Source: Candidatus Latescibacterota bacterium
GTDB lineage: Bacteria; Latescibacterota; UBA2968; GCA-2709665
Assembly (NCBI GenBank): GCA_965219455.1
Contig: OZ244744.1
Coordinates: 1,536,001 to 1,600,000, forward strand
Length of the DNA: 64,000 nt
Reading direction: 5' to 3'
Part shown: piece after piece, positions 20,500 to 46,414 of the stretch
Position numbering within the stretch: position 1 is the stretch's first letter
How the letters are laid out: every line of letters starts with the position of its first letter
Translations under genes and position numbers: made by a program
The notes under the pieces: model-generated
The model's input: the letters and a program-made list of their open reading frames with translations, nothing else
Told to the model about the DNA's origin: nothing
Databases searched by the model: none

Positions 20500-20964
20500 T
20501 TACCGAAATGCGCCTTCCGCAATATCCGATTCCCCCACAAACTGCTTGAGATGCTCTATTGCCCTTGCCAGATCGCTCCTGACCCACGGATCTCTCTCTG
20601 TCCGCATCGCCAGTTCCAGAACGGCAATAGCCTCCGGCTGTTCGATATGCATAATCGCGACCACCGCCTGCTGGCGCAATCGGCGGCTTCTGTCTGTAAG
20701 GAAATGCAACAGATCGGGCAGCGCTTCGCTGGCGCCCAGCATCCCCAGCGCCCATATCGCTTTGGCGCGCACCTCGGGTACCGTATCCCTCAGCGCCTGG
20801 CGCAAATGGGGAACCGCCCCGACCACGCGACGCGCGCCCAGATAGGCCGCGGCATCCTCGCGTTCCTGCGCCGTACCCCATCGAAGCCGTGTAAAATGAT
20901 CGCTGTCGCCGCCGCAACACGGCAACCCGATCGAAAATAGAAGAATAACACTCAGGCTGCGCAT
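20500..20964 (-). CDS. HEAT-repeat protein, possible lipoprotein
   Basis: Hydrophobic N-terminus with Cys; [10 protein letters not shown] and [13 protein letters not shown] repeats; overlaps hemL stop. Confidence 0.75.
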
Positions 20965-22241
20965 TCTTTCAGGGCCGTGTATTGCGCTTTAACCGTCCGG
21001 TCGATATCCGCATCGGTATGCGCCAGAGAAACAAACGTCGCTTCAAACTGGGAAGGCGCCAGATACACGCCCTGTTCCAGCATCAGCCGGAAGTAACGTG
21101 CGAAGGCATCCTGGTCGGATGCCACGGCGGCTTCGTATCGTGTAGGAGGACGATCCGTAAAAAACAGGGTCATCATGGAACCGACCCGGTTCAGGCGAAA
21201 CGGCAACCCGAGCGACTTCAGGTTCTCCCGGAAACCGGCTTCCAGCGCGGCGGCTTTGCCCTCGAGCGCCTCATACGCGCCCGGTTCCCGGAGTTGCCTG
21301 AGCGTTTCGTAACCGGCCGTCATCGCAAGGGGATTTCCGGAAAGCGTCCCGGCCTGCGACACTCCTTTTCCAAGTGGCGATATATGCGACATGATCTCCC
21401 GGCTGCCGCCGAATGCACCCACCGGCAACCCTCCGCCGATTATTTTGCCGAGCGTGGTCAGATCGGGTGTGATCCCGTAAAGCGCCTGCGCGCCGCCCGG
21501 ATGAACCCGGAATCCGGTAATTACTTCATCGAAAATCAGCACAATGCCCGACCTGGCGGTGAGTTCGCGCAACCCTTCGAGGAATCCCCCGGCCGGCGGA
21601 ATCACGCCCATATTGCCAGCCACAGGCTCCACGATGATCGCCGCGATTTCGTCCGTGTTCTCCGCTACAATTCGCTGTACCGCCTCCAGATCGTTGTAGG
21701 GCGCGGTGACGGTTCCCTCGGCCGTGCCGGCGGTCACGCCGGGGCTGCTGGGCACCCCCATGGTGAGCGCGGACGACCCCGCCCGGATCAGGAAACTGTC
21801 CGCGTGCCCGTGCCAGCACCCCTCGAACTTGATCACCTTCTCGCGGCCGGTATATCCCCTCGCCAGGCGCACGGCGGACATTGTGGCCTCCGTGCCCGAG
21901 TTCACCATCCGCACCATTTCCACACCGGGCACGAGGTCGGTGACCAGCCTGGCCATTTTGACTTCGATTTCCGTGGGCGCCCCGAAACTGGTTCCCTGCT
22001 CGCAGATCCGCTTGAGCGCCTCAACCACGCGTGGAGGCGCATGACCCAGAATCAACGGACCCCACGAGCAGACGTAGTCGATATACTCCCGTCCGTCCGC
22101 GTCGTACACCTTCGAGCCGCGTCCTCGCGTTATGAAAAGCGGCTGGCCGCCCACCGGGCCGAACGCCCGCGCCGGGCTGTTCACCCCGCCCGGAATCACC
22201 CGTTGCGCCGCTTCGAATAACTCTCCCGAACGGTTGTTCAC
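20952..22241 (-). CDS. hemL: Glutamate-1-semialdehyde 2,1-aminomutase
   Basis: [47 protein letters not shown]. Confidence 0.97.
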
Positions 22242-22302
22242 AAAACACCCCCCGATGCAACGGCCGTTGTGTGATTTAACGACAGTCGATGCCAGCCCTT
22301 AA

Positions 22303-22461
22303 CAGCCCGTTGAAACAGTCCATCCGGGCTGCGTCCGGCCCTTGTGGTCGAATTACTGCGTTGCACTCCCTCCCCGAATCTCCGATTCGACGCGGTCGCG
22401 CGCCTTGTCTTCGGCCACAATGACTCGGCCTCGCCTGCAGAGCGACTTTTTCAACGGACTG
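22303..22461. mobile_element. 159-bp MITE (family A), copy 2
   Basis: TIRs CAGCCCGTTGAAACAGTC / GACTTTTTCAACGGACTG; perfect TTAA duplication on both sides. Confidence 0.9.
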
Positions 22462-22508
22462 TTAATTATTGGATTTTGTCATTCATTGTCAAGTGGCGAT
22501 TATTGGGC

Positions 22509-22536
22509 TTGCAACGGCGCCGACGAAACGTATATT
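22509..22536 (+). promoter_or_regulatory. Probable promoter of the tRNA gene
   Basis: TTGCAA-16 bp-TATATT ending 14 bp before the tRNA 5' end. Confidence 0.55.
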
Positions 22537-22550
22537 TGTCCAACGCCTTC

Positions 22551-22793
22551 GCGGCAGTAGCTCAGAAGCTGTTTTAAAATTCCCGGTGAGTTCCCGAGCG
22601 CGAGCGAAAAGGTGTCGGTCAAGGCGGGCGAATTCGCCCCTATCTCAAAGATAAGGGTGGATTTGACCAACGCAGACCGAGGGGTTTGCAGCCGCGCGAA
22701 GACCGCCGGGGGTTTTAAGACAGCTTCTCAATAGGATAGAGCATCTGGCTTCGGACCAGACGATTGGGGGTTCGAGTCCTCTCTGCCGCACCA
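22551..22793 (+). tRNA. tRNA-Arg(UCG), interrupted by a MITE after position 14
   Basis: Joining 22551-22564 to 22731-22793 gives a 77-nt cloverleaf: acceptor GCGGCAG/CTGCCGC, D-arm GCTC/GAGC with A20, anticodon arm TCTGG-CTTCGGA-CCAGA, TTCGAGT T-loop, encoded CCA. Confidence 0.9.
22565..22727. mobile_element. 163-bp MITE (family B) inside tRNA-Arg
   Basis: TIRs GAAGCTGTTTTAAAATTCC / GGGGTTTTAAGACAGCTTC; TCA duplicated at 22562-64 and 22728-30; internal nested inverted repeats. Confidence 0.9.
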
Positions 22794-22841
22794 TCCAAAA
22801 CCCCGGTCACCTGATCGCGGTTTTGCCTCCCCGATCTTTAC

Positions 22842-25613
22842 ATGCCGCTTACCCACGACGCCATCCGAATCCGGGGCGCCCGCCAGCATAACCTGCGGAG
22901 CCTCGATCTCGACATTCCCAAAAACCGGTTTGTGGTCATCACGGGGCCATCCGGCTCCGGGAAATCCTCGCTTGCGTTCGACACCATCTACGCTGAAGGA
23001 CAGCGCAGGTACGTGGAGGCGATGTCCGCACACGCGCGCCGTTTCCTGGAGGTGATGGAGAGACCCGACGTGGACGGCATCGACGGCCTCTCTCCCGCCG
23101 TGGCGATTCAACAGCGCCGGGCCTCGGGAAATTCCAGGTCGACGGTTGGAACCCTCACGGAGATCCACGACCATCTCAGGATCCTGTTTGCCCGGGCCGG
23201 TCTGCCGCATTGCCCGGAATGCGACAAACCCATTTCGTGCCAGACCGTTGGCGAAATCGTTGACACCGTGCGCGCCCAGCCCGACGGTACGCGGCTCAGG
23301 ATCCTGGCGCCACGGGTCCGGAACCGGAAAGTTGCGTTCGACGAGGAACTGGAACGTCTGCGGCGCGACGGGTACGTGCGCGTGCGAATTGACGGGCGCG
23401 ACCGTTCGCTGGACGAAGAGATTCGCCTGGATCCCACTCTGCCGCACACCGTCGACGCCGTTGTGGACCGGCTGGTCGTCCGTCCGAAAATTGAACGCCG
23501 GCTGGCCGACTCGCTGGAAACCGCGTTAGCCCTCAGCGGCGGCGGCGTTTTTGTGGATATCCTCGAAGGACCGGAGTTGAGCTTTTCCACGCAATTCATC
23601 TGCAGAAACTGCGACGTCGGCTTTGAAGAATTGACGCCGCGTCTGTTCTCGTTCAACAGCCCGTACGGCGCCTGTCCGGCCTGTAACGGAGTGGGCGTGA
23701 GGACCGAAATCGATCCTGACCGGGTCGTTCCGGACACAAACCGATCCATTGCCGAGGGCGCGATCGCACCCTGGGGCGTCCCCAGAGGCCGTGCGGCGCT
23801 CGATCTGCTCCAGCGTCTCGCGAACCGATATCGTTTCGATCTCGCCGCACCATTCGGTTCCCTTTCACCCAGAGTGAGGGAGGCCATTCTGTGGGGCGAC
23901 AAATCCCTCCAATTCGACGGCGTGATCCCGCTCCTCAACAGGCGGGTTGCGGATACCGCGTCGGACGAAGGCGGATCCAGGCTGGACTCGTACGTCCGCA
24001 CGGTCGACTGCTCCGACTGCGCCGGCGCCAGGTTGCGAAAGGAGGCCCTGGCGGTCAGAATCGCCGGCAGGAACATCGCGCAGTTTGCTGCGATGAATAT
24101 CCACGTGGCCTGCGATTTCGTCGATAGCCTGAAGGGAAGGCTGGACCCTCCGGAGGTCGTTGCGCCGATTCTTCATGAAATACGCAACCGGCTTGCCTTC
24201 CTGAGGGACGTGGGCGTGGGGTATCTCACCCTGGAACGAAACGTGGCATCGCTCTCCGGCGGCGAGACGCAGCGTATCCGCATGGCCACGCAGATCGGCG
24301 CGCGCCTGTCGGGGGTACTCTACGTCCTGGACGAACCCAGTGTCGGTTTGCACCCCCGAGACAACCGTAAACTCATCCATACGCTTCACACGCTCCGCGA
24401 CCTTGGTAATACCGTTCTGGTCGTGGAGCATGATCGGGAAACCATGCTGGCCGCGGACCATCTGATCGACCTCGGACCGGGAGCGGGCGAGCAGGGCGGC
24501 GAACTTATGGCCCAGGGCACCGCTCAGGAAATTATCGCGGCCGGGGAAAGCCTCACGGGCGCGTACCTCTCCGGCCGGAAGACCATCCCCCCGCCTCCCG
24601 ACAGACGGCAACCCACCGGCCGAATGGTATTGAAGGGCGCGCGAGGGCACAATCTCAAGTCCATTGACGTCGCCCTCCCACTGGGCATTTTTGTCTGCGT
24701 CACCGGTGTGTCCGGATCCGGCAAGAGCACACTGATCAACCGGACACTGTATCCGGCCCTGGCGAACAGGCTGCACAACGCCACCGCCGCACCGCTTGAA
24801 CACGACGGTATCGATGGCCTGTCACAAATCGACAAAATCATTCGAATCGATCAGGCGCCGATCGGGCGGACTCCCAGATCTAACCCGGCCACATACACAG
24901 ACCTCTTTACGGATATCCGCGAACTCTACGCGCAGCTGCCCGAATCCAGGGTTCGGGGCTATACAGCCGGGCGATTCAGCTTCAACCTGAAGGGCGGGCG
25001 TTGCGAGCCCTGCCAGGGCGACGGCCTGCGTCGGATCGAAATGCACTTCCTTCCGGATGTCTACGTGACCTGCGATGCCTGCGGCGGAAGCCGGTACAAC
25101 AGGGAGACCCTGGAAATCCGTTACAAGGGCTGTTCCATCGCCGACGTCCTGAACATGACGACGGAGAGGGCGCTCACCTTCTTCAGAGATATTCCGAGCG
25201 CACAGCGTAAACTGAAAACGCTTGCGGAGGTCGGCCTGGGTTATATCCGGCTGGGCCAATCCGCAACCGTCCTCTCCGGAGGCGAAGCGCAACGCATCAA
25301 ACTGGCCTCTGAACTTTCCCGTGTGGCAACCGGAAAAACCATGTATATTCTGGACGAACCGACAACCGGGCTGCACTTCGAGGACATCCGGTCGCTCATT
25401 TCCGTTCTGGACCGGCTGGTGGATAAGGGCAACTCCGTCGTTGTGATCGAACACAACCTGGATGTGGTCAAGCGGGCGGACTGGATTGTTGATCTCGGTC
25501 CCGGCGGTGGCGATTCCGGCGGCCGGGTCGTCGCCGAGGGGCCCCCGGAACGCGTTGCCGCGGCGCCGGCTTCCCACACAGGCCGCTTTCTCAAAGAGGT
25601 GATCGCACTATGA
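22842..25613 (+). CDS. uvrA: Excinuclease ABC subunit A
   Basis: GARQHNL, two Walker A motifs (GSGKSS, GSGKST), LSGGE twice, LDEP twice, Zn fingers, FSFNSPYGAC. Confidence 0.98.
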   Translation: MPLTHDAIRIRGARQHNLRSLDLDIPKNRFVVITGPSGSGKSSLAFDTIYAEGQRRYVEAMSAHARRFLEVMERPDVDGIDGLSPAVAIQQRRASGNSRSTVGTLTEIHDHLRILFARAGLPHCPECDKPISCQTVGEIVDTVRAQPDGTRLRILAPRVRNRKVAFDEELERLRRDGYVRVRIDGRDRSLDEEIRLDPTLPHTVDAVVDRLVVRPKIERRLADSLETALALSGGGVFVDILEGPELSFSTQFICRNCDVGFEELTPRLFSFNSPYGACPACNGVGVRTEIDPDRVVPDTNRSIAEGAIAPWGVPRGRAALDLLQRLANRYRFDLAAPFGSLSPRVREAILWGDKSLQFDGVIPLLNRRVADTASDEGGSRLDSYVRTVDCSDCAGARLRKEALAVRIAGRNIAQFAAMNIHVACDFVDSLKGRLDPPEVVAPILHEIRNRLAFLRDVGVGYLTLERNVASLSGGETQRIRMATQIGARLSGVLYVLDEPSVGLHPRDNRKLIHTLHTLRDLGNTVLVVEHDRETMLAADHLIDLGPGAGEQGGELMAQGTAQEIIAAGESLTGAYLSGRKTIPPPPDRRQPTGRMVLKGARGHNLKSIDVALPLGIFVCVTGVSGSGKSTLINRTLYPALANRLHNATAAPLEHDGIDGLSQIDKIIRIDQAPIGRTPRSNPATYTDLFTDIRELYAQLPESRVRGYTAGRFSFNLKGGRCEPCQGDGLRRIEMHFLPDVYVTCDACGGSRYNRETLEIRYKGCSIADVLNMTTERALTFFRDIPSAQRKLKTLAEVGLGYIRLGQSATVLSGGEAQRIKLASELSRVATGKTMYILDEPTTGLHFEDIRSLISVLDRLVDKGNSVVVIEHNLDVVKRADWIVDLGPGGGDSGGRVVAEGPPERVAAAPASHTGRFLKEVIAL

Positions 25614-46395: not shown

Positions 46396-46414
46396 GAAGC
46401 TGTTTTTAAATTCC
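46396..46414 (+). mobile_element. Solo terminal repeat of MITE family B
   Basis: TCA|GAAGCTGTTTTTAAATTCC matches the 22565 end at 18/19 and has the same TCA flank. Confidence 0.65.

Follow-up and report, generated by a model that had tools for sequence, protein, structure and literature searches.

A tRNA-Arg(UCG) gene interrupted by a MITE in a Candidatus Latescibacterota genome

Introduction

Sequences that part the halves of a tRNA gene have been described in several forms, including the group I introns found in the anticodon loops of bacterial tRNAs, archaeal introns with a bulge-helix-bulge structure, and the split tRNAs of Nanoarchaeum. Among repeats that form hairpins, the Correia (NEMIS) elements of Neisseria are transcribed and cut by RNase III, while among mobile elements a 3-bp target-site duplication of the form T-N-A is typical of part of the IS5/PIF-Harbinger group. 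MITEs of bacteria and archaea, such as those of Haloquadratum and Sulfolobus, are moved by a transposase that acts in trans and whose own element has matching ends (PMC3119063, PMC3718332). A small mobile repeat can also reside inside the gene of a structured RNA, as does the Rickettsia palindromic element (RPE) in the tmRNA gene of R. bellii (PMC1458961). Literature searches with general terms turned up neither a bacterial tRNA gene split by a MITE nor any MITEs of Latescibacterota.

Here we examine a locus of this kind in a 64,000-nucleotide stretch of DNA (the window; G000:C1:1536001-1600000, contig OZ244744.1) from an uncultured, sponge-associated Candidatus Latescibacterota bacterium, whose genome (G000) is a complete MAG of 5.84 Mb in one contig with 58% G+C; sponge metatranscriptomes are among the sequencing runs that hold the stretch. 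An earlier sequence-only reading of the window had proposed that a tRNA-Arg(UCG) gene is split in its D-arm by a rod-shaped MITE, most likely as a recent knockout. We compare the locus with its counterparts in related genomes, place the inserted element within its family, and weigh the knockout against other explanations of the same arrangement.

Results

The interrupted gene lies on the forward strand in two parts. The 5' part (22551..22564, 14 nt) carries the acceptor 5' strand, U8, A9, the D-stem 5' strand and A14, and the 3' part (22731..22793, 63 nt) carries the D-loop, the D-stem 3' strand, the anticodon arm, the variable loop, the T arm, the acceptor 3' strand and an encoded CCA. Between them is an insert of 163 bp (22565..22727), flanked by two copies of the trinucleotide TCA at 22562..22564, corresponding to tRNA positions 12-14, and at 22728..22730, which places the insertion point after A14 in the D-arm. 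The split of a tRNA-Arg(UCG) gene by an element with terminal inverted repeats (TIRs) and a TCA duplication had thus been located correctly to the base. ARAGORN reads the two parts, rejoined in a script, as a 77-nt tRNA-Arg(tcg) in which the acceptor stem pairs at 7/7 positions, the D stem has 4 bp and all stems are paired, which bears out the complete cloverleaf with CCA proposed from the 14-nt and 63-nt parts.

The two closest sister species, G011 and G013, carry the uninterrupted gene. Aligned with both, the window shows one clean gap of 166 bp (163 bp plus the 3-bp duplication), such that each sister genome provides an empty site; the 14-nt 5' part has the same letters as the first 14 nt of their genes, and the rejoined gene is identical to each at 75 of 77 positions. 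Pairing is still perfect in the acceptor, anticodon and T arms of the interrupted gene, and only 1-2 of the 77 tRNA positions differ from the sister species. The A at 22763 (variable loop, tRNA position 46; G46A) is unique among 20 full-length genes, being G in 19/19 intact relatives; it is also A in the strain-matching contigs of runs X1 and X3, while most of the remaining contigs with a match to the 3' part have G there. The substitution points to relaxed constraint.

The gene sits between hemL and uvrA. On the reverse strand upstream lies hemL (20952..22241), encoding glutamate-1-semialdehyde 2,1-aminomutase (NCBIfam TIGR00713, 613.2 bits against a cut-off of 527.3), which is syntenic across the order; downstream, uvrA (22842..25613, forward strand; NCBIfam NF001503, 1357.2 bits against 1147) starts 48 nt past the tRNA 3' end. 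The upstream promoter of the sequence-only reading agrees with a predicted site, TTGCAA-16-TATATT, on the forward strand at 22509..22536, ending 14 nt before the tRNA 5' end; the promoter search returned 3 promoter-like sites compared with 0.4 +/- 0.6 in shuffled sequences, and the hexamers, read by eye, are kept in 15/15 spacers of the genus. Between the tRNA and uvrA, an inverted-repeat pair on the forward strand (22796..22825) forms a hairpin conserved in 15/15 genus spacers, after which there is no T run and at which no terminator-like site was called.

The hemL-tRNA spacer also holds a second, unrelated MITE (22299..22465) of 163 bp plus a 4-bp NTAN duplication (here TTAA), whose arms (22299-22320 and 22444-22465) are 91% complementary and which ends 86 bp upstream of the tRNA. 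This second family has 38 full copies in G000, up to 97% identical, with an exact 4-bp duplication at 27 of 35, and its empty site in the spacer occurs in one contig of X7 (joint 22298->22462). The same spot is filled in G002, G003, G004, G008 and G010 and empty in G011 and G013, making it either a hot spot or a long-lived polymorphism. In the spacer of G010 (L037) a further insertion is nested within the copy of the upstream MITE, and the spacer of G014 (L035) carries a different insertion of ~190 bp.

The 163-bp insert itself has the TIR GAAGCTGTTTTAAAA, with terminal arms (22564-22586 and 22706-22728) of 23 nt that are 87% complementary in an inverted-repeat search. It is predicted to fold as a single long hairpin of -89.7 kcal/mol (z -9.55; 0/200 shuffles equal), and the nested inverted repeats and rod shape noted earlier are contained in this fold. 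BLAST of the insert against G000 gave 43 matches, 17 of them full or near-full copies. Eight other full-length copies are 88-91% identical to the one in the tRNA gene, while a subfamily of seven copies (186-190 bp) shares 73-76% identity; a single copy of 131 bp and a number of fragments are also found. T-N-A flanks each of the 17 full or near-full copies, duplicated exactly at nine and with one base off at eight. The family is present in 14/14 congeners, in 2/2 genomes of a neighbouring genus and in 28/41 relatives searched, and among the genomes searched it is limited to the genus of G000 and one neighbouring genus; a published description of it was not found with general search terms. Given its TIRs, its target-site duplication, its numerous copies and the empty site found in G011 and G013, the insert is a true MITE, a non-autonomous DNA transposon, as had been supposed. 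In addition, the terminal repeat of the MITE has a lone match at window position 46396 (G000:C1:1582396); a second end is missing within 6 kb, and the match may be a fragment.

Compared with an 18-copy consensus, the tRNA copy shows nine differences, only two of them private, a pattern that fits an insertion of some age that nonetheless took place long after the MITE family arose. As for an autonomous partner, a fuzzy scan of the genome for the TIR found no pair of ends more than 250 bp apart, and the PF13359 transposase has 0 matches in G000. PF01609 has 39 matches, representing at least five IS families, and the ends of the five families that were delimited do not match the MITE TIR. Their copies are 97-100% identical to each other, from which it appears that transposition in this IS-rich genome is recent or ongoing. 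A habit of targeting tRNA genes was also considered and rejected: in-silico excision restores a tRNA at 1/16 full copies, the one in tRNA-Arg, and at 0/38 copies of the upstream family, indicating that the insertion into a tRNA gene was a one-off.

A DNA search with the 3' part of the gene gave a match in 41/41 relatives. The best 19 loci were those of G011, G013 and 17 further genomes, drawn from other genera and a second family, and ARAGORN found an intact tRNA-Arg(tcg) at every one (19/19); the hemL-tRNA-uvrA order is the same at the checked intact loci and kept across the two families. The other 12 of the 14 congeners (G001-G010, G012 and G014; spacers L031-L042) have at hemL-uvrA only a relic of 66-68 nt from which the D-loop and D-stem 3' strand are deleted. 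The relic still shows a recognisable acceptor stem, anticodon arm and T arm together with CCA, and promoter and downstream hairpin are retained at these loci. ARAGORN called no tRNA in 11 of the 12 spacers and a 68-nt, D-arm-less tRNA in one. In total, 13 of the 15 species of the genus are without a normal tRNA-Arg(UCG), via two different lesions, and with only a relic in 12/14 congeners the gene is dispensable in the genus.

On a uvrA tree, 11 short-form species form a clade that shares a basal polytomy with G000, G013 and the pair (G011, G003); the short-form G003 pairs with the intact G011 at a support of 91/93. A tree uniting all 12 short forms, a group named after the tree had been seen, is not rejected (AU p = 0.068), so a single D-arm deletion event in the genus is possible. 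Whether there was one deletion event or more, the MITE entered the G000 lineage separately and later, at a time when that lineage still had its full gene. The relics were also considered as footprints of MITE excision, and this was rejected: the least deleted of them, in G001, keeps a base beyond the insertion point, and none has a doubled TCA. TIR-like letters after GCTCA in G007 and G009 were likewise set aside as a trace of the MITE, since these relics are of the same length as the others and plain substitutions suffice.

ARAGORN made 52 tRNA calls in G000, among them Arg ACG, CCG, CCT and one good TCT, and neither ARAGORN nor a DNA search found a second tRNA-Arg(UCG) gene in the genome. 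Calls for a tRNA-Cys(ACA) and a second tRNA-Arg(TCT), at G000:C1:2761865-2761942 and 3663239-3663315, have atypical sequences and are probably false positives. TadA is encoded (164-165 bits against a cut-off of 150). By established decoding rules, the ICG anticodon, formed when TadA deaminates ACG, can read CGU, CGC and CGA, and CCG reads CGG; a cell with tRNA-Arg(ACG), TadA and tRNA-Arg(CCG) therefore tolerates loss of the UCG gene, in line with the earlier suggestion that this isoacceptor may be dispensable. CGA accounts for 11.2% of Arg codons in G000, or 9.1 per 1000 codons across 1082 long ORFs.

It had been expected that standard tRNA scanners would miss the interrupted gene, and the opposite was found. 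ARAGORN reports a seemingly intact 77-nt tRNA-Arg(tcg) on the forward strand at 22717..22793, a chimera in which the end of the MITE stands in for the 5' strand; three acceptor-stem positions fail to pair, and the D stem has 3 bp. The Rfam tRNA model gives the interrupted gene 29.1 bits, barely passing the cut-off of 29, compared with 68.1 bits for the intact genes of G011 and G013. Four of the D-arm-deleted relics were scanned with Rfam and scored 38.7-46.7 bits against the same cut-off, and would thus be annotated as tRNAs. The practical risk at this locus is over-annotation rather than omission.

Very probably, the locus records nothing more than a MITE knockout of an isoacceptor that can be spared, at a date after the split from the nearest species; other explanations were weighed against this reading. 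Misplacement of a MITE copy inside the tRNA gene during assembly is opposed by the perfect 3-bp duplication flanked by exact gene halves, which is a signature of transposition and not of misassembly, by a copy that has its own sequence with two private changes, and by a genome that forms a single contig. Moreover, the right junction is bridged by contigs from the runs of several studies (X1, 22651-23000, with 0 differences; X9, 22570-22833, with 1 difference; X3, from 22698). What can be said for an artefact is that the left junction is bridged by none of the contigs listed from other runs and has 0 exact matches in JGI metagenome contigs; X1 and X3 contigs give no cover over 22497-22550. Taken together, we consider the chance of such an artefact to be vanishingly small. 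The empty-allele joint (22564->22731) occurs in none of the X1, X3, X7 and X9 contigs, although contigs drop rare variants and absence of the allele is not implied. Two X7 contigs have a loose end before 22727 that resembles the uninterrupted 5' part of the tRNA; their upstream letters differ (consensus agreement 0.73), and they are taken as likely tRNA genes of other organisms. It is likewise very improbable that the interrupted gene still gives a working tRNA, split or enlarged. In such a product the MITE rod would project from the D-loop, where it might be left in place or be cut back by RNase III, the acceptor and D stems then holding two pieces together. In its favour, the genome encodes RNase III (122.9 bits), the three helices that remain have stayed whole, and in a 243-nt fold of the whole gene the acceptor stem closes around the MITE, which forms one rod extended by the D-stem strands. 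However, the minimum-free-energy form of that fold lacks the anticodon and T arms, and tRNA function requires docking of the D-loop with the T-loop, exactly where a 163-nt stem or its stub would sit. Further arguments against a product are that literature searches gave no precedent, that twelve congeners live without the gene, and that G46A is unique to the G000 copy. Excision at the RNA level fares no better: Rfam, at the gathering threshold, detects neither a group I intron nor any other intron family in the window, and the tRNA splicing endonuclease (PF01974) has 0 matches in the 100% complete G000, with a positive control in four archaea. A 265-nt contig of an RNA library (X9) is continuous from a point within the MITE to one 40 nt beyond the tRNA, may stem from DNA carry-over and is uninformative on small RNAs; in this one RNA library examined there is no sign of excision. 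The earlier idea of excision or an enlarged tRNA consequently finds no support; that no working tRNA is made is inferred rather than observed.

Against the knockout stand the intact helices, the fact that CGA is not a rare codon, and the conservation of the promoter-relic-hairpin module. Across the 66 pairs of the 12 short-form species, mean identity is 83% in the relic, 79% in the 75 nt upstream (with the promoter) and 86% in the downstream spacer with the hairpin, as against 66% at four-fold sites of the adjoining uvrA, and in the 29 most distant pairs the relic is 84% identical compared with 57% at four-fold sites, synonymous sites being an imperfect neutral yardstick. The module looks constrained by this comparison, though probably not as a strict tRNA: the three helices are fully paired in only 5/12 relics, one of which has an altered anticodon, T-loop changes occur in two other relics, and in all 7/12 have helix non-pairs or changes in the T loop or anticodon loop. 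An identity above that of synonymous sites hints at some remaining function of the locus, possibly a non-decoding one, in which promoter, tRNA or tRNA-like fold and hairpin would serve as a 5' leader or processing handle of the uvrA message. Decoding loss, through D-arm deletion in 12 species and the MITE here, would then be tolerated while the module stays, which is compatible with a knockout as far as decoding is concerned. The 48 nt between tRNA and uvrA, filled by a conserved hairpin without a T run, the gene order kept across two families, the promoter hexamers kept in 15/15 genomes and the identities given above all speak for such a leader, whereas the X9 contig ends at 22833, before uvrA, and may be DNA, and the non-pairs and loop changes in seven of the relics show that any constraint is not on a strict tRNA fold; on balance we regard a role as promoter and leader of uvrA as unlikely, though it is our favoured guess for the conserved module. 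Less likely again, and in our view rather improbable, is that the tRNA-Arg(UCG) locus of the genus is alive in a broader sense, with promoter, acceptor stem, anticodon arm, T arm and CCA under purifying selection and a transcript that acts as a D-arm-less tRNA, as a two-piece or enlarged tRNA after RNase III trimming in G000, or as a tRNA-like handle 5' of the uvrA message.

Discussion

On the knockout reading, events at this locus can be reconstructed as follows. A MITE that duplicates a 3-bp T-N-A target entered U12-C13-A14 of the only tRNA-Arg(UCG) gene of G000 and moved the D-loop 166 bp away from the D-stem 5' strand. The gene would then no longer encode a normal tRNA and would be a pseudogene, its loss presumably borne by the ICG and CCG isoacceptors. 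The description of this knockout as recent holds only in a relative way: the insertion is younger than the split from G011 and G013, whereas a copy only 88-91% identical to its paralogues, with two private changes, in a gene bearing the unique G46A, does not suggest an insertion of the immediate past.

The element resembles the MITEs of Haloquadratum and Sulfolobus (PMC3119063, PMC3718332) in that it is short and non-coding, ends in TIRs, makes a target-site duplication of constant length, exists as numerous diverged copies, folds like a rod and is missing from the corresponding site of relatives. It is unlike them in that no transposase element with matching ends was found in G000, and in that the family is confined, among the genomes searched, to the genus and its neighbour. 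The T-N-A duplication at 17/17 copies, exact in nine, resembles that of the IS5/PIF-Harbinger group. In G000, PF13359 is without a match and the 39 PF01609 matches have, where checked, ends that differ from the TIR. The MITE is accordingly only a candidate member of IS5/Harbinger, no cognate transposase having been found in G000.

The nearest parallel to the interrupted gene is the RPE in the R. bellii tmRNA gene, where too a short mobile palindrome lies inside the gene of a structured RNA (PMC1458961). The likeness is one of description, not alignment, and unlike the gene in that account the tRNA gene of G000 is redundant, with no function shown for the interrupted form (PMC1458961). Resemblances to other systems are more distant. 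As in tRNA introns and split tRNAs, parts of a tRNA gene are parted by extra sequence that could pair with itself, but the window has no Rfam intron family and the genome no splicing endonuclease, and the target-site duplication together with transposon copies elsewhere identifies the insert as a DNA-level insertion. Like the Correia/NEMIS elements, again by description only, it is a MITE that forms a rod, would be part of a host transcript and occurs in a cell that has RNase III; the target-site duplication is different.

Insertion of a MITE into a tRNA gene is an ordinary kind of event, here in a gene that has decayed in sister species too. The locus nonetheless constitutes an annotation trap, in that ARAGORN and Rfam both give a tRNA-Arg(UCG) at the interrupted gene and Rfam also gives one at each of the four relics scanned, with the consequence that automated tRNA inventories of these MAGs will overstate their decoding capacity. 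For the biology of the genus, one gene has been inactivated in two ways, by D-arm deletion and by MITE insertion, and in G000, a symbiont genome rich in repeats, the loss of a redundant isoacceptor appears to have been caught in the act. Should the conserved relic module turn out to be functional, it would represent an unusual bacterial tRNA-like element tied to uvrA.
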